Positions 1-54,645 of a stretch of DNA of 64,000 nucleotides are shown piece after piece. The stretch is from the sequence record OR780565.1, one strand, 5' to 3'. The number at the start of each line of letters is the position of its first letter. The first letter of the stretch is position 1. Under the pieces are notes generated by a model. The model searched no databases. It had not been told where the DNA came from and saw only the letters and a list, made by a program, of their open reading frames with translations. This DNA comes from Escherichia phage DCP2. Both the position numbers and the translations under genes were made by a program.

Positions 1-139
1 TGATATTGAAATAGAAGACAGAGTTGACTTTGCATCATTTGTTTCATCAAATGTTAAACAGAAAGTAGAATCATCTCTTGGAATTATTGCGTCTTGCATA
101 GATATTACAAACATGCCTTACAAGTTCGTTCAAGGATAA
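1..139 (+). CDS. 3' end of an upstream Alt-like ADP-ribosyltransferase paralog (partial)
   Basis: In-frame translation ends ...SSLGIIASCIDITNMPYKFVQG, with stop at 137-139; this C-terminus is paralogous to that of the full alt ORF downstream (..SQILASLVNINGMSKKFKM). Confidence 0.6.
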   Translation, partial: DIEIEDRVDFASFVSSNVKQKVESSLGIIASCIDITNMPYKFVQG

Positions 140-142
140 ATC

Positions 143-2200
143 ATGGAACTTATTACAGAATTATTTGACGGCGCTTCGGCGCCGGTTGTTAACTTAAATC
201 CGAAGCATAAAATACCTCAAATTTTTGCTATTCAAGCAGGCGAAGAAAGTGTGCTTCCTGGATTTAGATTTTGTACATACACCTCTGGCGGTGATACAAA
301 TAAAAACGTTAAGCCAGGCGATAAAATGATGCATATCGTAATGATAGGTGTTAATGAGAAACTATCATTAGTTAAACTTAAAAACTTAGGTGGAAATCCA
401 ATTGGCGTCATTAACGCTGTTTTTGATACTGCTCTTCAAACAATGAAACAGTATAAAATTGACGCATGCTTATTCCGCGTACTAAAAAGTAAAACAAACG
501 GCGCAGCTCGTCAAATGCAAGTTATTGCCGACCGTTTAGTACGTACTAAAGGAGCAGGTCGATATGTTCTTTTAAAGGAAATCTGGGACTACGATAAGAA
601 ATATGCATATATTATGGTTTACCGTAAAAATGCCAATTTAGAAGACATTCCAGGTGTACCTCCTATTTCAACTGAGTTATTCACAAAAGTTGAATCAAAG
701 GTTGGTGATGTTTATGTAGATGTTAAAACAGGCAATGCTGTTCCTAAAGCTGTTGCTGTTGCTGCTTCTATTGCTTTAGAAAACGATAAGCGCACGGATC
801 AAGCTGTTATTCAGAAAACTAAAATTAGTCGTCGGTTAGCAGCACAAGCTCAATATTCTACTGTCGATGCTTCACTTCAGGGTGATAGCTTCGCTGCTAA
901 GAAATATCAAGAGTTTGAATCTAAAGTTCCGGTATATAAAGCAGAAGGACCAATGAACTCTGGCGTTATTCAGGTTGGTTCAAACTTCAGCAAAGGAGCT
1001 ATCGGTGGTATGAGAAGTGCTTCTCGTTTTAAATCTAGTGATTATGAACTAGAAAGCTTCCGAAATCATATTGCATTGGCTCATGCACGTTTACGTGATC
1101 CATCTATCAAGTTACAGAGCGATATATCATATCAAGGTTCTCAAGAATATTTAAAGAATAAAGAATTTTTTGATTATAAAACTGATAAAATTTTAAGTGA
1201 TCTTGCTGACATTAATATTTCTAATAGCTTTGATGTTATTAAGAAAATTATCAATGATTTAGTTAAAGGTTCTAAAGCCACGCCAGATGAAAAGGTAGCT
1301 ATTGTTCAATTTGTCATGAATGGCGTTTATAAATTGATTAATGAGTCTGCTTCTCAAGCGTATGAATATGCAAGTACTGAAGTAACTCCAAAAGGATTAA
1401 CTCAGGCTGAGTCTGATGTAATTGAAGATTATTGTGCAGATTCATATGTTGAAATGAACTCGTTCCTTTTAGGTAAACCAGATTCTACACGTGAAGAATA
1501 CATGGAACGAGCTATTAAACACATCGAGACAATGGATTCTGCCTTTGCCAAAGGATCAGTTCTTCCTCCAGGAACTACACTTTACCGTGGACAAGAAGTT
1601 ACCTTTAAAACTTTACGTCATAATATTGAAAATAAAATGTTCTACTTCAAGAACTTCGTATCCACATCGCTTAAACCAAATATCTTCGGTGAGTATGGTA
1701 AAAACTATATGGCTCTAGATGATTCCGGCACAGTATTTTCTGGTGAAGGAGAAGGTTCTGTTGGCGCTGAAGATTTAATGCATATGGGCAGTCATTCTGC
1801 GTATGCCAATGAAGATGCTGAAACTAGCGTGGGTATGGTAATTAAAGGAGCTGAGCGAATCAAAGTTATCGTTCCAGGTCATTTATCAGGATTTCCATCA
1901 GAAGCTGAAGTTATTCTACCGCGTGGAATTTTGCTGAAGATTAATAAAGTGAGTACGTACATGATGAAAGAAACTGCTTATAACAAGTATCTAATCGAAG
2001 GCACAATCGTTCCTCCTTCTGAACAATTAGAAGAATCGGTATATGATGGTGACCATCTGATGGAAACTGGTGAAGTTCGTCCAATGACTGGATTTAACCA
2101 ATTCCTTGTAGAAGAATCAAAAGAAGAGGAAAATGAAGTTTCTCAAATCTTGGCTTCTTTGGTTAACATCAATGGAATGTCTAAAAAGTTCAAGATGTAG
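143..2200 (+). CDS. alt: Alt, packaged ADP-ribosyltransferase
   Basis: 685 aa (T4 Alt about 682 aa); MELITELFD N-terminus; R-S-E type ART motifs (LYRGQ, FVSTSL, SEAEVILPRG); sits next to gene 54 as in T4. Confidence 0.85.
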   Translation: MELITELFDGASAPVVNLNPKHKIPQIFAIQAGEESVLPGFRFCTYTSGGDTNKNVKPGDKMMHIVMIGVNEKLSLVKLKNLGGNPIGVINAVFDTALQTMKQYKIDACLFRVLKSKTNGAARQMQVIADRLVRTKGAGRYVLLKEIWDYDKKYAYIMVYRKNANLEDIPGVPPISTELFTKVESKVGDVYVDVKTGNAVPKAVAVAASIALENDKRTDQAVIQKTKISRRLAAQAQYSTVDASLQGDSFAAKKYQEFESKVPVYKAEGPMNSGVIQVGSNFSKGAIGGMRSASRFKSSDYELESFRNHIALAHARLRDPSIKLQSDISYQGSQEYLKNKEFFDYKTDKILSDLADINISNSFDVIKKIINDLVKGSKATPDEKVAIVQFVMNGVYKLINESASQAYEYASTEVTPKGLTQAESDVIEDYCADSYVEMNSFLLGKPDSTREEYMERAIKHIETMDSAFAKGSVLPPGTTLYRGQEVTFKTLRHNIENKMFYFKNFVSTSLKPNIFGEYGKNYMALDDSGTVFSGEGEGSVGAEDLMHMGSHSAYANEDAETSVGMVIKGAERIKVIVPGHLSGFPSEAEVILPRGILLKINKVSTYMMKETAYNKYLIEGTIVPPSEQLEESVYDGDHLMETGEVRPMTGFNQFLVEESKEEENEVSQILASLVNINGMSKKFKM

Positions 2201-2229
2201 TTTACAAGTCACTCGTGTTGTGTTATAAT
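2200..2229 (+). promoter_or_regulatory. T4 early-type promoter (GTTTAC-N18-TATAAT)
   Basis: gtttac at 2200-2205 and tataat at 2224-2229, upstream of the 96-aa ORF. Confidence 0.5.
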
Positions 2230-2260
2230 AATCTTACTGACATAACATGAGGAACACAAA

Positions 2261-2551
2261 ATGAAATCTTCTTTGCGCTTTTTAGGTCAAGAACTCATAG
2301 TTGAAGGCGTTATTCCTGCTGATAACGCTTTTAATGAAGCGGTTTACGACGAATTTATCAAAATTTTTGGAACAGATAAAAAGTTCGGAATTTTTCCTTC
2401 TGAAAATTTCTCAAAGCCAGAACAGACTGAAAGCATTTTCCAGGGTGTAGTAACAGGTAAATTTGAGTCAGAAACTCCGGTAAAAATTGAAGTTTATATT
2501 GAAGACAGTTTAGTTGCTTCAGTTGCTGCTTTTATTTCATTCCGTAAATAA
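2261..2551 (+). CDS. hypothetical small protein between alt and gene 54
   Basis: 96-aa ORF with ATG start, preceded by an early-promoter-like element and followed by a hairpin. Confidence 0.5.
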   Translation: MKSSLRFLGQELIVEGVIPADNAFNEAVYDEFIKIFGTDKKFGIFPSENFSKPEQTESIFQGVVTGKFESETPVKIEVYIEDSLVASVAAFISFRK

Positions 2552-2556
2552 AAACA

Positions 2557-2574
2557 TGGGGACCTTTCGGTCCC
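2557..2574. terminator. bidirectional stem-loop (GGGGACC-TTTC-GGTCCCC)
   Basis: Perfect 7-bp inverted repeat between convergent genes (96-aa ORF on plus, gene 54 on minus). Confidence 0.6.
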
Positions 2575-2579
2575 CATTG

Positions 2580-3545
2580 TTATATTGCTCCTAATATTTT
2601 ACTTTGCGAGTTGACAATTCCCGTCATAGTATTAATGTTTGAAATGCTTCCAGCAGTTCCTCCTAATCTACTAAGTCGTGAAAGCGAATTAGATAGTCCA
2701 GTAACACCTCCACTATTTCCGAGAACGCTTTGAATGCCATTTATAGCAGCAGATTCAAGCCATTCAAGCGCAGCTTGTCTATCAACTGCTCCAGCCTGCA
2801 TGACTCTATACGCAAAAGTAACATCAAATGTAGTTATTTGATTATCTCCATCATATGATAACTCAGGAGCGCTCACTGACACTGGAATGCATCCGGTGAA
2901 CATCACAGCAGTATGAGGTAATCCATTACGAGCATGAAGATTAACCTGAATGTCTGCCTCGACATCTTGTGGCAAAGCACGCAGTCCAGTTACTGGGTCT
3001 TGAACAGCGTTAACCCAGTCTTGCATTGCACGATAATTACATGCTTCTGAATCCATTCTAAATGAAATAACCAAAGGGTCTAATTCTCTCCCAGTTATAC
3101 GAATATTAGGAGAATTATAGTTCCAGTCAGTTTCATAGGATAATCTATTCTCTGGCATTTTTACAGAATATATCATCAATCCAGATGAGTTATATGCCAT
3201 GTTAAAGAAGTCAATTAAATATGTACCAACTGTAAATGAGCCCAATAAACTTTGAACTGTACGTTGACTCATGGCACCAATAAGATATTTACTAACCCCT
3301 GATTTTCTTATCAGTTTTTGTGTGCCAGCAGTAATTAGCGTGGTAATTCCCTGATTAATATCGCCTTGAGTCAATCCTAACCAATCTGAATTTAGACCCA
3401 AGTTATTATAAGAAAAGTTGCTAATTGAACTTATCAACGAAGAGCTTTTAGTTGATGGAGTTGTCGCAAAAACGCAGCTAAACATATTATTACGTTGGAA
3501 ATCTGCGTTTATTGCTTGATTATTAAATTCCTCTAAAGAATACAT
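2580..3545 (-). CDS. 54: gp54 baseplate tail-tube initiator
   Basis: 321 aa (T4 gp54 320 aa); position in the 54-48-29-28-27-51 block. Confidence 0.85.
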   Translation of the reverse strand: MYSLEEFNNQAINADFQRNNMFSCVFATTPSTKSSSLISSISNFSYNNLGLNSDWLGLTQGDINQGITTLITAGTQKLIRKSGVSKYLIGAMSQRTVQSLLGSFTVGTYLIDFFNMAYNSSGLMIYSVKMPENRLSYETDWNYNSPNIRITGRELDPLVISFRMDSEACNYRAMQDWVNAVQDPVTGLRALPQDVEADIQVNLHARNGLPHTAVMFTGCIPVSVSAPELSYDGDNQITTFDVTFAYRVMQAGAVDRQAALEWLESAAINGIQSVLGNSGGVTGLSNSLSRLSRLGGTAGSISNINTMTGIVNSQSKILGAI

Positions 3546-20067: not shown

Positions 20068-20877
20068 TTAGAAACGAGATGCGACTTTCGCATATACACT
20101 TACAATATCTTCTGCACCTTGTGCAGATTTATCTTCTACAGCTTCAGTGACGAAATTCAGTCCGGCTGCTTCAGTATCAGGAGTATTTATACTCTCAGTA
20201 ATAGTGCTTTCATCTTTATTAGATTTCTTCACCATTTCTACGATTGCACTCAATTTACTTGAGAATGCATCTGAATAATCCATACCTTCGACCAGAGCAG
20301 AGACTTTTTCTTTTTGAGACTCAGTCAGATCTTTAGTACTTTCGCTCAATGCCACTTCACGCTGCACATAATTGATATATGCGTCACGCTTATTGAGTTC
20401 TTCGAACAGACGAGCTGATTCTTCTTTATGTTCTTGCAGTTCTTCTTCCATTTCAGCTACAACATCAACTGATTCTTCTGGAACAACAACGTTGTGTTCA
20501 ACGAAGAGCTCTTTCAATCCACCAAGCATGGATTCAAACAGTTCGGCTTTGATACCTTTATCTACTGCTAATTTATTTTCAGTGAGCCATTCTTTTGCAA
20601 GATGGTCAAGGAATTTAGAAGCTTGCTCAGCGATTTTCTTCTCAGCTTTTTCTTCTGCTTCTTCTTTATTTTTTTCTACTTCTTCTTCTGCTTTTTCAGC
20701 AATTTTAGCGATATGAGATTCAGCTAATTTAACGGCGTGCTGCTTGACGGTAGCTTCGAATACAGTGCCGAAAGTTTCTTTTGCTTCCGGAGAAATATTA
20801 ACTGATTCGAAAATACTATCAAGAGCAACGGAAGCATCAATTTTCTGCGCTTCGGCAATCAGTTGTTCTTTAAGCAT
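20068..20877 (-). CDS. 22: gp22 prohead core scaffold
   Basis: 269 aa, same as T4 gp22; highly charged coiled-coil composition; minus-strand TATAAATA at 20905-20912. Confidence 0.85.
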   Translation of the reverse strand: MLKEQLIAEAQKIDASVALDSIFESVNISPEAKETFGTVFEATVKQHAVKLAESHIAKIAEKAEEEVEKNKEEAEEKAEKKIAEQASKFLDHLAKEWLTENKLAVDKGIKAELFESMLGGLKELFVEHNVVVPEESVDVVAEMEEELQEHKEESARLFEELNKRDAYINYVQREVALSESTKDLTESQKEKVSALVEGMDYSDAFSSKLSAIVEMVKKSNKDESTITESINTPDTEAAGLNFVTEAVEDKSAQGAEDIVSVYAKVASRF

Positions 20878-20907: not shown

Positions 20908-21546
20908 TTATAACGCTTTTTTCATGGCCTCTGCGAGAGCCATATAGGCGTCATCGGCACTTGTATCGGCTTCCGCCGTCTGTGATTCGGTAATTTCCTT
21001 AGGAGTTACCCATGCATCTGGAGCACTTGGACCCCATACTGCATCAACACCTACAGTTAATTTGAATCCTTCGTTTACGATACGATAACCTTTATTTGTG
21101 TCAGTCAATGAACCTAATCCACGAGAAGAAACTCCTGGAATCCATCCGGCACGAATATTAGCTGCTAATTTATCTCCAGGACCGTGGTCACCTTCAATAA
21201 CACGAGCTCGTCCGTATACGTCATTTCCTTTCCACCACATATCTTCTATAATGATAGCGGCTTGCATCGGGTCAACATTAGCGCGTGGAGGATGATTTAA
21301 TTCTCCGAGAGCTTGTTTAGTTAAAACTTGCTCATTAATATAGTCTTTTACCGCTTTTTCTAATATGCGTTTTGGATAAAGACGTTTATTTCTATTGACG
21401 ACTTCTGCTTGCATGAATATTCCTTCGATGTATAAACCCGGTTTTAAACCTAAGTCTTTTCCATCGTGGGATTCAAGCATTGGCACACCATCAATAATTT
21501 CGCCAGGTTGACCCCAAGTTTCAATTAGTAATTGGGGTTCATTCAT
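20908..21546 (-). CDS. 21: gp21 prohead core protease
   Basis: 212 aa, same as T4 gp21; synteny. Confidence 0.85.
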   Translation of the reverse strand: MNEPQLLIETWGQPGEIIDGVPMLESHDGKDLGLKPGLYIEGIFMQAEVVNRNKRLYPKRILEKAVKDYINEQVLTKQALGELNHPPRANVDPMQAAIIIEDMWWKGNDVYGRARVIEGDHGPGDKLAANIRAGWIPGVSSRGLGSLTDTNKGYRIVNEGFKLTVGVDAVWGPSAPDAWVTPKEITESQTAEADTSADDAYMALAEAMKKAL

Positions 21547-47701: not shown

Positions 47702-48154
47702 ATGGCATATTCTGGAAAATGGGTTCCTAAAAATATATCAAAATATAGAGGTGACCCTAAAAAAATTACGTATAGATCAAATTGGGAAAAATTCTTTTTT
47801 GAATGGTTAGATAAAAATCCAGAAATTATTGCATGGGGTAGTGAAACAGCAGTAATTCCTTATTTTTGTAATGCAGAAGGGAAAAAACGTAGATACTTCA
47901 TGGATATTTGGATGAAAGATTCTTCTGGACAAGAATTTTTTATTGAAATAAAGCCTAAAAAAGAAACACAACCACCAATTAAACCAGCACATCTAACAAC
48001 CGCAGCGAAGAAAAGATTTATGAATGAAATTTATACATATTCCGTTAATACTGACAAATGGAAAGCAGCTCAAGCTTTAGCTGAAAAGCGTGGAATAAAA
48101 TTTAGAATTTTAACAGAAGATGGATTACGAGCTCTTGGCTTTAAGGGGGCATAA
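47702..48154 (+). CDS. 4: gp4 head completion protein
   Basis: 150 aa, same as T4 gp4; AGGAG RBS. Confidence 0.85.
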
Positions 48155-48981
48155 TGGCTATTTTTCAAATAATTAATGAAAGCACTCCCCAAGTTCCAAA
48201 GGTTAAGCAATCATTAAACGAAAAGAAATGGATTCAGATAGGTCTTGAATACAAAAAGGCCAAAGCAAAAGGAATGACAGGAAAGCAATTTGCTGAAGAA
48301 AGAGGAATCAAATACTCTACGTTTACTTCGGCAATGTCAAAATATGCTTCAGGAATTAAAACAGCTGAAAAGATTCAAAATCTTGAATCAAAACCAATGA
48401 ATAAACTCAATAAGCAAGAAAGACAACTGCTTATGATAAATTCATTCAGACAAACATTGCGTGATAAAATTCGTAATGAAGGCGCAGCAATTAATAATAA
48501 AACCAGAAAGTGGTTTGCTGAAACTATTAAGCAGGTAAAAGGACATAAAGTTGTTCGCCCGCAGCCGGGACGAATATATGCTTTTGCTTATGATGCTAAA
48601 CACAAGGAAACTCTTCCTTATTGGGATAAATTTCCTTTGATAATTTACCTTGGTTTAGGTAAACATAATTTAATGTACGGATTGAACTTGCACTATATTC
48701 CACCTAAAGCTCGTCAACAGTTTCTAGAAGAGCTTTTAAAGCAATATGCAAATACACCTACTATTACTAATAAAACGAAATTGAAAATTGATTGGAGTCA
48801 AGTGAAAGGATTTAGGGGTGCAGACCAAATGATTAAGGCATATATACCTGGTAATATTATGGGTAGCCTAGTTGAAATCGCCCCGAAAGACTGGGCGAAC
48901 GTTGTGTTAATGCCACTCCAAAGCTTCTACTCCAAAGGAAAACGTTTCTCTGCAAACAAAGTTTGGAGCAATGTACGATGA
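48154..48981 (+). CDS. 2: gp2 DNA end protector protein
   Basis: 275 aa (T4 gp2 274); ATG overlaps the gene 4 stop. Confidence 0.85.
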
Positions 48982-49637
48982 ATTATGAAAAAATTTATAA
49001 TTCACTAATTGATAGGGCTCGCAATAGAGCCCTTACTGGATATAAAGAAAGACATCATATTATTCCGAAATGTTTAGGCGGTAGTAATGATGCTTCTAAC
49101 TTGGTTGATTTAACTCCAGAAGAGCATTATGTTGCACATCAACTATTAGTAAAAATACACCCAAATTCTTTAAAATTATCTTATGCGGCCATAAAAATGA
49201 CGGTTTCAACTAAATATGTTAGGAGAAATAATAAAGTTTATGGTTGGTTAAAAAGAAAACATGCAAATAATATTTCAAATACACAAACTGGACGAAAATA
49301 TTATAATAATGGTAAAAGATGTATAAAATTGCATGATGGAGATATAATTCCTGAGGGATTTATTTTAGGAAGAGGATGGAGTCCGACACAAGGCACAACT
49401 CATTCTAGAAAAAATGATACATTTAAAAACAAAAAGCTTCAATCTGCTTTAGCTAATAAACGGTGGGAAAAAGAAAAGAAAATAATGTTAGATAACTTTG
49501 GAGTTAGCACTATTGATGAAGCAAAGAAAATTGTTCTTGATTTTAAATCAACTTGTCATCCAAGATATTGGCGAAAGCCAACTTTAGAAAAATTTCCATT
49601 TATGACTTCTGCTCGTTTAAGAAGTCTAATAAATTAA
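48978..49637 (+). CDS. HNH homing endonuclease inserted between genes 2 and 3
   Basis: HNH motif ([32 protein letters not shown]); ATG at 48978 overlaps the gene 2 stop (ATGA). Confidence 0.7.
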
Positions 49638-53701: not shown

Positions 53702-53788
53702 GCGAGAATGGTCAAATTGGTAAAGGCACAGCACTTAAAATGCTGCGGAATGATTTCCTTGTGGGTTCGAGTCCCACTTCTCGCACCA
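53702..53788 (+). tRNA. tRNA-Leu (anticodon TAA), CCA encoded
   Basis: Manual cloverleaf: gcgagaa/ttctcgc acceptor, anticodon loop cttaaaa, long variable arm, ggttcgagtcc T-arm. Confidence 0.8.
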
Positions 53789-53793
53789 AATTT

Positions 53794-53867
<74 letters not shown>

Positions 53868-53877
53868 ATTTAATTTA

Positions 53878-53951
53878 CTCCGTGTAGCTCAGTTTGGTAG
53901 AGCGCCTGATTTGGGATCAGGAGGTCCAAGGTTCAAATCCTTGTATGGAGA
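53878..53951 (+). tRNA. tRNA-Pro (anticodon TGG), no encoded CCA
   Basis: Manual cloverleaf: anticodon loop tttggga, ggttcaaatcc T-arm; 2 nt upstream of tRNA-Ser (dimeric precursor arrangement). Confidence 0.75.
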
Positions 53952-53953
53952 CT

Positions 53954-54043
53954 GGAGGCGTGGCAGAGTGGTTTAATGCACCGGTCTTGAAAACCGGCAG
54001 TCGCTCCGGCGACTCATAGGTTCAAATCCTATCGCCTCCGCCA
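53954..54043 (+). tRNA. tRNA-Ser (anticodon TGA), long variable arm
   Basis: Manual cloverleaf: ggaggcg/cgcctcc acceptor, anticodon loop cttgaaa, long variable arm, CCA encoded. Confidence 0.8.
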
Positions 54044-54047
54044 GTTT

Positions 54048-54124
54048 TGCTGATTTAGCTCAGTAGGTAGAGCAACTCACTTGTAATGAGAAGGTCGGCG
54101 GTTCGATTCCGTCAATCAGCACCA
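54048..54124 (+). tRNA. tRNA-Thr (anticodon TGT)
   Basis: Manual cloverleaf: tgctgat/atcagca acceptor, anticodon loop cttgtaa, ggttcgattcc T-arm. Confidence 0.75.
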
Positions 54125-54125
54125 A

Positions 54126-54199
54126 GGCCCTGTAGCTGGAAGGTTCAAGCAAGCGACTCATAATCGCCAGATGGTGGTTCAATTCCACCCAGGGCCACC
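54126..54199 (+). tRNA. tRNA-Ile/Met (anticodon CAT; probably lysidine-modified Ile as in T4)
   Basis: Manual cloverleaf: ggccctg/cagggcc acceptor, anticodon loop ctcataa. Confidence 0.75.
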
Positions 54200-54208
54200 A
54201 AATTAATT

Positions 54209-54296
54209 TGGGGAGTTATCCCGTAGAGGTAGCGGTGTGGACTGTAAATCCATTGTCATTGCGACTCGGGTGGTTCGACTCCACCACTCCCCACCA
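54209..54296 (+). tRNA. tRNA-Tyr (anticodon GTA), long variable arm
   Basis: Manual cloverleaf: ggggagt/actcccc acceptor, anticodon loop ctgtaaa, ggttcgactcc T-arm. Confidence 0.7.
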
Positions 54297-54300
54297 ATTT

Positions 54301-54375
54301 GGATGTGTAGCTCAATGGCAGAGCGATCGCCTGTTAAGCGATTGGTTATAGGTTCGAATCCTATCACGTCCGCCA
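54301..54375 (+). tRNA. tRNA-Asn (anticodon GTT)
   Basis: Manual cloverleaf: anticodon stem atcgc/gcgat with loop ctgttaa, ggttcgaatcc T-arm. Confidence 0.75.
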
Positions 54376-54489
54376 AATTTGTGACAACTGTCACATTAAT
54401 ATCTACTTGACGCGATTATAGGGGTTGAACTGATCACTCTTCTCTTAATTTCGTGTGAAGACATCTTGATTGTTGGAGTAGGTATTAAT

Positions 54490-54565
54490 GTGGCCGTAGT
54501 TCAGTTGGTAGAACTCGAGATTGTGATTCTCGTAGTCATGGGTTCGACTCCCATCGGTCACCCCA
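54490..54565 (+). tRNA. tRNA-His (anticodon GTG) with extra 5' G(-1)
   Basis: Manual cloverleaf: anticodon loop ttgtgat; 8-bp acceptor stem including G-1 opposite discriminator C. Confidence 0.75.
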
Positions 54566-54569
54566 ATTA

Positions 54570-54645
54570 CGGGGCATAGCTCAGAAGGAAGAGCAAGGAC
54601 CTTCTAAGTCCTAGGTCGTAGGTTCGATCCCTACTGCCTCGACCA
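54570..54645 (+). tRNA. tRNA-Arg (anticodon TCT)
   Basis: Manual cloverleaf: anticodon stem aggac/gtcct with loop cttctaa, ggttcgatcc T-arm. Confidence 0.8.

Follow-up and report, generated by a model that had tools for sequence, protein, structure and literature searches.

Analysis of a 64,000-nt stretch of DNA from Escherichia phage DCP2 (record OR780565.1; hereafter the window) confirmed that a tandem pair of Alt-type ADP-ribosyltransferase (ART) genes is present in this T4-like phage, at positions 1-2200 (Table 1). The full explanation preferred here, to which a probability of about 80% is assigned, is that the window comes from a Tequatrovirus with the alt locus in its T2/T6 state, consisting of the alt orthologue (A), a 3-nt spacer and a full-length paralogue (B). 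The pair had been proposed in an earlier reading made from the letters of the window (the sequence-only reading), and it proved to be real with its labels swapped: alt is the truncated open reading frame (ORF), and the complete one behind it at 143..2200, called there the full alt gene, is its paralogue.

Two Alt-type genes in tandem

Frame 2 is open across window 2..136 (DIEIEDRVDFASFVSSNVKQKVESSLGIIASCIDITNMPYKFVQG) and closes with TAA at 137-139, and the B ORF runs for 685 codons from the ATG at 143. The spacer is 3 nt, the ATG being the fourth base past the stop, in agreement with the "4 bp later" of the sequence-only reading. The similarity of the two C-termini noted there was also recovered, the fragment of A aligning gap-free to B residues 643-683 (11/40 identities; BLOSUM62 score of 46 within the window). 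This score was reached by 8 of 2000 shuffles against the whole ORF and by none of 5000 against its last 60 residues; therefore, the within-window similarity is weak yet above chance.

The window itself holds only 45 codons of A, and the complete gene was read in near-identical phages, with Escherichia phage ECO07P4 showing 99.9% identity over window 1-2600 and base-for-base identity at 1-142. The fragment was 100% identical to residues 653-697 of A in ECO07P4, T2, and T6; with T4 Alt it shared 95% identity (residues 640-682), and the DNA of the A-to-B junction showed 96% identity with T4. By its identity with the C-terminus of T4 Alt and its position directly upstream of the alt.-1 start, the fragment is the end of the alt orthologue. 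Complete A shared 70% identity with T4 Alt overall and 100% in aa 1-235. Alignment of both full proteins, with A (697 aa) taken from ECO07P4, showed them to be collinear over residues 1-694 with 41% identity (E 5e-159), and both matched PF03496 above its gathering cut-off of 23.4 (A, 129.5 bits; B, 73 bits). The R-S-E residues were present in both proteins, as R480, S505-T-S, and E587-A-E589 in A and as R482 (nt 1586-1588), S507-T-S509 (nt 1661-1669), and E587-A-E589 (nt 1901-1909) in B. Complete A thus carries the full R-S-ExE core, and the case that the sequence-only reading had named against itself, an upstream ORF without an ART core, does not apply.

Judged by best reciprocal similarity together with the same position as T4 alt, B is no orthologue of alt. 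Its identity with T4 Alt is only 41%, and it lies at the alt.-1/alt.-2 position, where it matched T4 Alt.-1 and Alt.-2 with 88% and 98% protein identity, respectively, and the T2 and T6 genes with 97.4-97.7%; B is the intact form of the T4 remnants alt.-1 and alt.-2. In addition, B was collinear with T4 Alt over its full length (41.6% identity, residues 1-683 vs 1-679, E 1.5e-156) and gave a full-length match to phrog_802 (E 2.7e-255). Domain content, catalytic residues, collinearity, and gp21 motifs all point to B as an Alt-like ADP-ribosyltransferase of the Alt/VIP2 clade (PHROG 802). The downstream gene alt.-3 is a neighbour and no Alt paralogue.

Table 1. Features of the alt locus and of the gene for the prohead protease in the window
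Feature	Position	Strand	Basis
End of the alt orthologue (A), last 45 codons + TAA	2..139	+	Identity to ECO07P4/T2/T6/T4 Alt
AAGGA, likely Shine-Dalgarno for B	132..136	+	Read from sequence; 6 nt before ATG
Paralogue B, putative 685-aa Alt-like ADP-ribosyltransferase	143..2200	+	Homology, PF03496, phrog_802, dN/dS
Predicted N-terminal propeptide MELITE, gp21 motif ITE-6	143..160	+	Conservation; T4 Alt ITE-6 site
N-terminal alpha/beta domain, aa 7-235	161..847	+	55-82% identical to A
A5 run, A4 in T4	302..306	+	Comparison with T4
Left CTAAAAAGT copy, left breakpoint of T4 deletion	482..490	+	Comparison with T4
Divergent all-helical central region, aa 236-415	848..1387	+	No significant pairwise similarity to A alleles
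ART domain, aa 416-620	1388..2002	+	PF03496 match
L629-E-E631, predicted C-terminal gp21 motif	2027..2035	+	Aligned with T4 Alt LTE-619
Predicted C-terminal propeptide of B, 54 aa, pI 4.6, + stop	2036..2200	+	Sequence; stretch matched in the sequence-only reading
Right CTAAAAAGT copy, right breakpoint of T4 deletion	2181..2189	+	Comparison with T4
Sigma-70 (T4-early type) promoter TTTACA-17-TG-TATAAT for alt.-3	2201..2229	+	11/12 consensus positions
alt.-3, 96 aa, DUF5498	2261..2551	+	98% identity to T4 Alt.-3
Bidirectional terminator hairpin between alt.-3 and gene 54	2556..2577	.	Sequence scan
Gene 21 prohead protease (Peptidase_S77)	20908..21546	-	E 1.5e-111

Domain plan, predicted processing, and probable expression

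A and B, both of roughly 690 aa, share a common plan: a 6-residue propeptide ending in ITE, then the conserved N-terminal domain, a helical region that varies, the ART domain with its R-S-ExE residues, an LxE site, and an acidic propeptide at the C-terminus. The N-terminal domain occurred only at protein N-termini, in ~69 protein clusters, and we infer that it is the module incorporating B into the prohead core. PF03496 was detected in 8 of the 10 sampled distant clusters with this domain; since these eight are ARTs, the idea of a general delivery module on non-ART effectors was rejected. As side observations, cluster P0183 contains a degenerate ART-like sequence, judged by eye, cluster P0184 (541 aa) contains no recognisable ART, and the precomputed family PF26846 is listed for homologues. 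When residues 1-416 of B were searched against Pfam with E allowed up to 10, T3SchapCesA alone was returned and was dismissed as noise (E 0.074, 13.6 bits vs a cut-off of 29.1).

Within the ART domain, R482, S507, S509, E587, and E589 were invariant in 29 homologues, and aa 510-560 form a B-specific PN-loop insert. Mutation of the matching Glu of T4 Alt, published as E577A, abolished activity (PMC11404850); the second Glu counts as E576 in NP_049811, a numbering offset of one residue. The AF2 model of B (pLDDT 73.7) matched the arginine-specific ART Vis, followed by C3, an iota-like toxin, Certhrax, and VIP2. This fold and the catalytic motifs are what support a predicted NAD-dependent mono-ADP-ribosyltransferase activity of B on host targets, RNA polymerase alpha among them. 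A PDB sequence search found no solved Alt structure, its sole match being Vis (E 0.78).

For processing, the cleavage sites of T4 Alt, ITE-6 and LTE-619, have been determined by mass spectrometry (PMC5694885), and the GenBank annotation X15811 records 6 amino acids cleaved off. ITE-6, and [LIM]xE directly before [SA] and then YDGDxLMETGE, are conserved family-wide; in B, the family-invariant S-V-YDGDxLMETGE comes after LEE-631, and the first 27 nt of A and B are identical. The product of gene 21 is the enzyme expected to cut both paralogues. Because T4 Alt cut at LTE-619 loses 63 residues (PMC5694885), the C-terminal stretch shared by the A fragment and B lies outside the mature enzyme, and the fragment falls wholly inside the C-terminal propeptide of A, downstream of LTE-632. 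B would enter the prohead core via its N-terminal module and be trimmed by gp21 at ITE-6 and LEE-631 to a protein of ~69 kDa, which would be injected together with the DNA and modify arginines of host proteins by ADP-ribosylation. Both Alt-type enzymes are probably head-packaged and injected to modify host proteins; a literature search found no virion proteomics of a Tequatrovirus with the A+B pair.

With regard to expression, the AAGGA of B abuts the A stop codon at 137-139, and this suggests translational coupling between the two genes. No promoter- or terminator-like sites were found between A and B, and TATAAATA was absent from window 1..2200; a terminator followed by TATAAATA lies just upstream of A only. 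A promoter of its own for B was rejected, as sigma-70-like matches within the gene did not exceed shuffle expectation and TATAAATA was lacking. Late transcription of B may start at the alt late promoter and place it on one mRNA with A.

Distribution of the pair and the deletion within B in T4

The A and full-length B pair was found in T2, T6, and ~400 database records and the T4-type deletion junction in ~90, figures that count records and not lineages. The tandem pair is the usual state, and T4 represents a minority, deleted state. Compared with the present sequence, T4 lacks 1,699 bp between two CTAAAAAGT copies, and its shortening of the A5 run to A4 is a -1 frameshift that splits the remnant into alt.-1 and alt.-2. 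Pairs of such 9-mers are common enough that, by our estimate, 2 kb of AT-rich DNA would contain several by chance, and the repeat carries weight only because its copies coincide with both deletion endpoints. On this comparison, alt.-1 and alt.-2 of T4 are the remains of B after the 1,699-bp deletion and the -1 frameshift. Existing annotations imply another history, in which T4 shows the original state and an insertion into alt.-2 gave rise to B (the T6 note in MH550421, "apparent insertion in alt.-2") or the 5' part of alt was partially duplicated to give alt.-1/alt.-2 (the T4 note in NC_000866). We give such a history almost no credence, for the "extra" 1,699 bp complete an ORF under purifying selection whose collinearity with Alt extends through the ART domain, cleavage site, and propeptide, the 9-bp repeat is present once in T4 and twice in the full gene, the T4 frameshift lies in an A-run, and the tail of T4 alt.-2 is the 3' end of B read in another frame.

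Single A/B chimeric genes were identified in three phages, PST, SCS4, and KAW1E185, the last with the C-terminal tail of B grafted onto an A body; unequal A/B crossovers at short identity islands made these single genes. Moreover, DNA identity between the T4-type and T2/T6-type alleles of A is 97% across nt 1-720 and reaches 98-100% in the final ~120 nt (with 90% for the 1861-1920 bin), whereas between these conserved ends identity falls to 27-80%.

The tandem alt pair is already known and its genes are annotated in hundreds of records. T2 "alt.-1" (AYD82791), T6 "alt.-2" (AXN58232), and PP01 YP_010073571, the last annotated as Alt-like RNA polymerase ADP-ribosyltransferase, are the same gene in the same tandem position (97.4-99% protein identity) with no difference of substance from B, and the feature is therefore already catalogued. 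Duplication of alt in tandem was described in 2006 (PMC1524935) and again in 2026, and the same diverged-paralogue reading has been published for Tequatrovirus 6phi13/SHFML-11 (PMC13600099). Nolan 2006 was the only relevant paper found in a literature search on alt.-1/alt.-2.

Among known systems, T4 gpAlt (NP_049811, 682 aa) resembles B in domain order, R-S-ExE ART, ITE-6/LxE motifs, YDGDxLMETGE, acidic C-terminal propeptide, and a locus between gene 30/alt.1 and alt.-3/54. It differs in its propeptide (63 aa vs 54 aa predicted in B), in sharing only 41% identity with an unalignable central region and PN-loop, and in that B has no promoter of its own. T4 alt.-1/alt.-2 (NP_049810, NP_049809) are orthologues of B at the DNA level, with 96% identity across window 7-490; the gene is frameshifted and partly deleted there and intact here. 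The bacterial R-S-E toxins Vis, C3, iota/CDTa, VIP2, and Certhrax (14-26% sequence identity across matches) are secreted and have other delivery domains. T4 ModA and ModB are ~200 aa long, early, and unpackaged, lacking the N-terminal domain and propeptides. The T4 internal proteins IPI-IPIII vary between T-even phages and, unlike Alt-type proteins, are small, non-enzymatic, and without a C-terminal propeptide. ModA and ModB are R-S-E clade phage ARTs acting on host proteins (PMC5512222), and IPI-IPIII are prohead-core proteins with an N-terminal targeting peptide removed by gp21 that are injected with the DNA (PMC9958956, PMC5694885).

Proposed function of the second paralogue

The central region of B (180 residues) gave E ~0.3 against A, compared with 7e-32 between the two A alleles, and neither this region nor the PN-loop insert could be aligned to A. 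Turn 1 of the ARTT loop also differs, being GFPSEAE in B but GIATEAE or APSNEME in the alleles of A. Strong purifying selection acts on B, with a dN/dS of 0.045-0.078 overall and at most 0.13 in every segment (central/PN-loop, 0.11-0.13; ART, 0.04-0.08). As B has an unrelated or altered central region, PN-loop insert, and ARTT turn 1, we infer that the target set of B would differ at least partly from that of Alt.

A broader reading, which we hold tentatively and at somewhat less than even odds, is that the T-even alt locus is a cassette system and B a second injected ART with its own host targets. The N-terminal propeptide and domain and the C-terminal propeptide would be its constant delivery parts, and the T4-type A, T2/T6-type A, and B would supply interchangeable effector bodies; the target of B could be a defence or stress protein, and B may have escaped study through its deletion from T4, the model phage. 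Alternatively, B could be a back-up that is packaged, active, and directed at the same substrates, including RNA polymerase alpha, being kept only for dosage or through recombination dynamics. T4 has lost B, and PST and SCS4 the A body, at no obvious viability cost, so that the two may be largely redundant, and both retain the ExE motif typical of arginine-specific ARTs. Redundancy is nonetheless unlikely, given that the regions that cannot be aligned between A and B are under purifying selection within B, that ~400 records keep both genes intact, and that ARTT turn 1 differs between B and the A alleles. It is more doubtful still that B is unpackaged and acts late inside the infected cell, or serves in the core or scaffold without catalysis. 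Alt itself has been called both an enzyme and a core protein (PMC11404850), and no virion evidence for B was found; against this stand the conserved N-terminal propeptide, N-terminal domain, and both gp21 motifs of B, its invariant catalytic residues, the low dN/dS of its ART segment, and the chimeras, which remain intact genes after swapping an N-terminus or C-tail between A and B.

Alt, with about 40 copies per head, is the textbook case of an enzyme that enters the cell with the phage DNA, and it has been studied almost entirely in T4, while the second intact Alt-type enzyme of T2, T6, and ~400 records is not known to have been characterised. Should B be packaged and hit targets of its own, the first seconds of a T-even infection would modify the host more than the T4 model implies. 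Furthermore, the parts of Alt that constitute the delivery module are marked out by the conservation of the propeptides and by naturally occurring A/B chimeras, which is useful for packaging foreign proteins into T4 heads.

Tandem Alt-type genes at the start of the window

The start of the window corresponds to the T4 region 30/alt.1/alt/alt.-1/alt.-2/alt.-3/54: the 3' end of an ORF (A), a 685-codon ORF (B), and alt.-3 follow one another on the plus strand, and genes 54, 48, and 29 come next on the minus strand. Positions 1-2600 were 99.9% identical to Escherichia phage ECO07P4 and shared 97-98% identity with numerous Tequatrovirus genomes, PP01 and Yersinia phage ZN18 among them. Alignment inside the window revealed that the 45-residue fragment of A matched residues 643-683 of B without gaps (11/40 identities, score 46), a score reached by only 8 of 2000 shuffles against the whole ORF and by none of 5000 against the last 60 residues of B; the similarity is weak but real. 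Moreover, positions 1-142 equal ECO07P4 base for base, and the upstream gene of that phage encodes 697 aa that align end to end with B (41% identity, E 5e-159). With the upstream gene read in ECO07P4 and both proteins aligned over their whole length, the two tandem Alt-type paralogues proposed by the sequence-only reading were borne out, both by the above-chance fragment alignment and by the collinearity of the ECO07P4 gene with B.

That reading had, however, called the complete ORF the full alt gene, which reverses the labels. The fragment shared 95% identity with T4 Alt 640-682 and 100% with the upstream protein in ECO07P4, T2, and T6, whereas B was only 41.6% identical to T4 Alt but 88% identical to T4 Alt.-1 (residues 1-61) and 98% to Alt.-2 (residues 62-116); therefore, the truncated ORF is alt and the complete ORF is its paralogue.

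Features of the tandem locus, related genes, and chimeric alt genes (window positions unless stated)
Feature	Position	Strand	Remarks
A, 3' end	open frame 2, base 2 to TAA at 137-139	+	45 residues encoded
B, start	ATG 143; AAGGA at 132-136	+	read from sequence
B, N-terminal domain	B residues 1-235		55-82% identity to A
B, central region	B residues about 240-430		2-20% identity to A
B, ADP-ribosyltransferase (ART) core			25-48% identity to A
B, PN-loop insert after STS			identity to A dips to 12-20%
B, C-terminal tail			30-42% identity to A
Early-type promoter for alt.-3, TTTACA-17-TG-TATAAT	2201-2229	+	strong, 11/12 matches
Bidirectional terminator	2556-2577		hairpin
gp22 scaffold	20068-20877	-	
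gp21 prohead protease (Peptidase_S77)	20908-21546	-	
Yersinia phage PST chimera	L004 3141..5201		crossover B gene nt 294-304, window about 436-446
SCS4 chimera	L007 3136..5196		crossover B gene nt 447-472, window about 589-614
KAW1E185 chimera	L006 3136..5193		crossover B nt about 1757, conserved ExE/EVILPRG codons, window about 1899

Segmental divergence, catalytic residues, and processing signals of B

Identity between B and A varied strongly by segment. In pairwise comparison, the central region of B did not match either A allele significantly (E about 0.3), whereas this stretch is still recognisably similar between the T4-type and T2/T6-type A alleles (32% identity, E 7e-32). In addition, the PN-loop inserts of B and A were unalignable, and ARTT turn 1 was GFPSEAE in B, the corresponding A sequences being GIATEAE in one allele and APSNEME in the other. 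Such elements contribute to substrate choice in C3- and iota-type ARTs, and the differences in these three regions may be linked to substrate choice in B.

B matched PF03496 at 73 bits (cut-off 23.4) and, over its full length, phrog_802 'Alt-like RNA polymerase ADP-ribosyltransferase'. Its catalytic residues, assigned by sequence, are R482 in LYRGQ, S507-T-S509, and E587-A-E589 in EAEVILPRG, all invariant across 29 aligned homologues down to 42% identity. In T4 Alt, the mutation published as E577A abolished ADP-ribosylation (PMC11404850); direct counting of NP_049811 (T4 alt, L003 7455..9503) places the ExE glutamates at 574 and 576, a one-residue offset. Against the PP01, PE37, PST, and SCS4 orthologues, B had an overall dN/dS of 0.045-0.078; by segment, the values were 0 (N-terminal domain), 0.11-0.13 (central region), 0.04-0.08 (ART domain), and 0.03-0.10 (C-tail).

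Mass spectrometry has shown that gp21 cleaves T4 Alt at ITE-6 and LTE-619, removing 6 N-terminal and 63 C-terminal residues to leave 68.2 kDa (PMC5694885); GenBank X15811 also records the 6-residue removal. Motif search placed the C-terminal site at LTE-619 (T4 Alt), LTE-632 (T2/T6-type A), and LEE-631 (B), and S-(V/I)-YDGDxLMETGE comes next in all three. Across 29 homologues, an N-terminal [IL]xE and a C-terminal [LIM]xE|[SA] with YDGD..(L/M)E(T/S)GE were conserved, and AF2 predicted disorder (pLDDT <50) for residues 629-663 of B despite this conservation. Mature B is thus predicted to comprise residues 7-631 and to weigh about 69.0 kDa, the acidic propeptide accounting for 54 further residues. 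All 45 visible residues of A fall within its 65-residue propeptide; therefore, the C-terminal paralogy seen in the sequence-only reading holds as similarity, but what was recognised is a shared processing/packaging tail and not the enzyme.

The Alt N-terminal domain occurred in only 69 clusters, always N-terminally, when 1.84 billion representative proteins were searched exhaustively. About 54 of the 69 measured 560-790 aa; the remainder, down to 36 aa, are probably fragments or remnants. PF03496 was present in 8 of the 10 most distant clusters sampled, and no convincing structural relative of the domain was found. Two distant proteins, P0184 (541 aa) and P0183 (485 aa), carried the domain without a Pfam ART match. 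By eye, P0183 has a degenerate-ART look (LYK, TSCS, NSE-IVLPRG) and P0184 lacks any recognisable ART motif; the delivery domain may therefore sometimes bear a different cargo.

Deletion, expression, and exchange at the locus

T4 DNA aligned to positions 7-490 (96% identity) and then jumped to 2181-2595 (95% identity), the two blocks sharing the 9-mer CTAAAAAGT (482-490 and 2181-2189), which is single copy in T4; therefore, 1,699 bp are absent from T4, and the lesion bears the signature of a deletion between short direct repeats. Furthermore, the A5 run at 302-306 is A4 in T4, a frameshift that splits alt.-1 from alt.-2, and out-of-frame reading of the 3' end of B accounts for the unusual C-terminus of T4 Alt.-2 (SSKCSLQVPRVVL). 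GenBank describes an 'old duplication of the first part of alt' in T4 and an 'apparent insertion in alt.-2' in T6; a deletion in T4 is the better description than either.

Just upstream of A, ECO07P4 carries, in this order, a terminator hairpin, a T4 late-promoter box TATAAATA, and a ribosome-binding site. This box had zero occurrences in 1-2200, and no promoter or terminator was found in the 3-nt gap between A and B; therefore, the simplest view is that B is a late gene sharing a transcript with alt and probably coupled to it in translation, and such timing would fit a prohead protein. The neighbouring alt.-3 (2201..2551 with its promoter, plus strand; DUF5498, 96 aa) is 98% identical to its T4 counterpart and, despite its name, unrelated to Alt; a near-consensus early-type promoter of its own directly follows the stop codon of B.

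Counted as records in the phage collection rather than independent lineages, the internal 1.67 kb of B was at least 80% covered in 401 and the T4-type deletion junction occurred in 90, while A had a T2/T6-type central region in 319 and a T4-type one in 175. The pair is present in T2 and in T6, with B 97.4% and 97.7% identical to that of the window and A 98.9% and 99.1% identical to that of ECO07P4. DNA identity between the two A alleles was 97% for nt 1-720 and 98-100% for the final ~120 nt (with 90% for the 1861-1920 bin), but dropped abruptly to 27-80% between these stretches, with sharp edges near nt 720 and near nt 1860-1980. Their proteins (L001 4046..6139 versus T4 alt) were 100% identical over residues 1-235 and only 11-33% over residues 260-420. 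This pattern is a recombinational mosaic, and with two such diverged alleles, results on T4 Alt may not transfer to Alt of T2 and T6.

Moreover, three phages (Yersinia phage PST, SCS4, and KAW1E185) carry a single chimeric alt gene, made by unequal crossover between A and B at a different A-to-B point in each. All three remain intact open reading frames; therefore, the N-terminal module and C-terminal propeptide are interchangeable between the paralogues, as would be expected if common delivery parts flank an effector body that varies.

Elsewhere in the window, a 224-aa HNH homing-endonuclease ORF (48963..49637, plus strand; phrog_655, E 2.6e-59; no Pfam match at 1e-3) overlaps by its start the 3' end of ORF 48154..48981 (gene 2 by position) and explains a ~660-bp insertion relative to PP01 between genes 2 and 3. 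Ten tRNAs (53702..54645, plus strand: Leu, Gly, Pro, Ser, Thr, Met(cat), Tyr, Asn, His, Arg) occupy the position of 8 tRNAs and segB in PP01, without tRNA-Gln and segB and with additional Tyr, Asn, and His; the flanks (about 51.8 to 61.3 kb) aligned only patchily with PP01.

Earlier descriptions and significance

A 2006 paper reported tandem duplication of alt, naming T4 alt.-1 and alt.-2, ORFs of RB49 and 44RR, and one full-length duplicate in 44RR (PMC1524935). In 2026, two Alt-like paralogues with 43% identity were described in Tequatrovirus 6phi13/SHFML-11, with a proposed functional divergence that matches the sequence-only reading (PMC13600099). In many genomes, RefSeq gives both genes the label 'Alt-like RNA polymerase ADP-ribosyltransferase'. 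The tandem pair is real, but ordinary and already catalogued. The searchable literature yielded no exact map of the T4 deletion, no mention that both gp21 sites are conserved in B, and no description of the A/B chimeras; experiments on B did not turn up in literature searches, which were aimed at other questions. What interest remains comes from the lack of the putative second enzyme in the best-studied phage.
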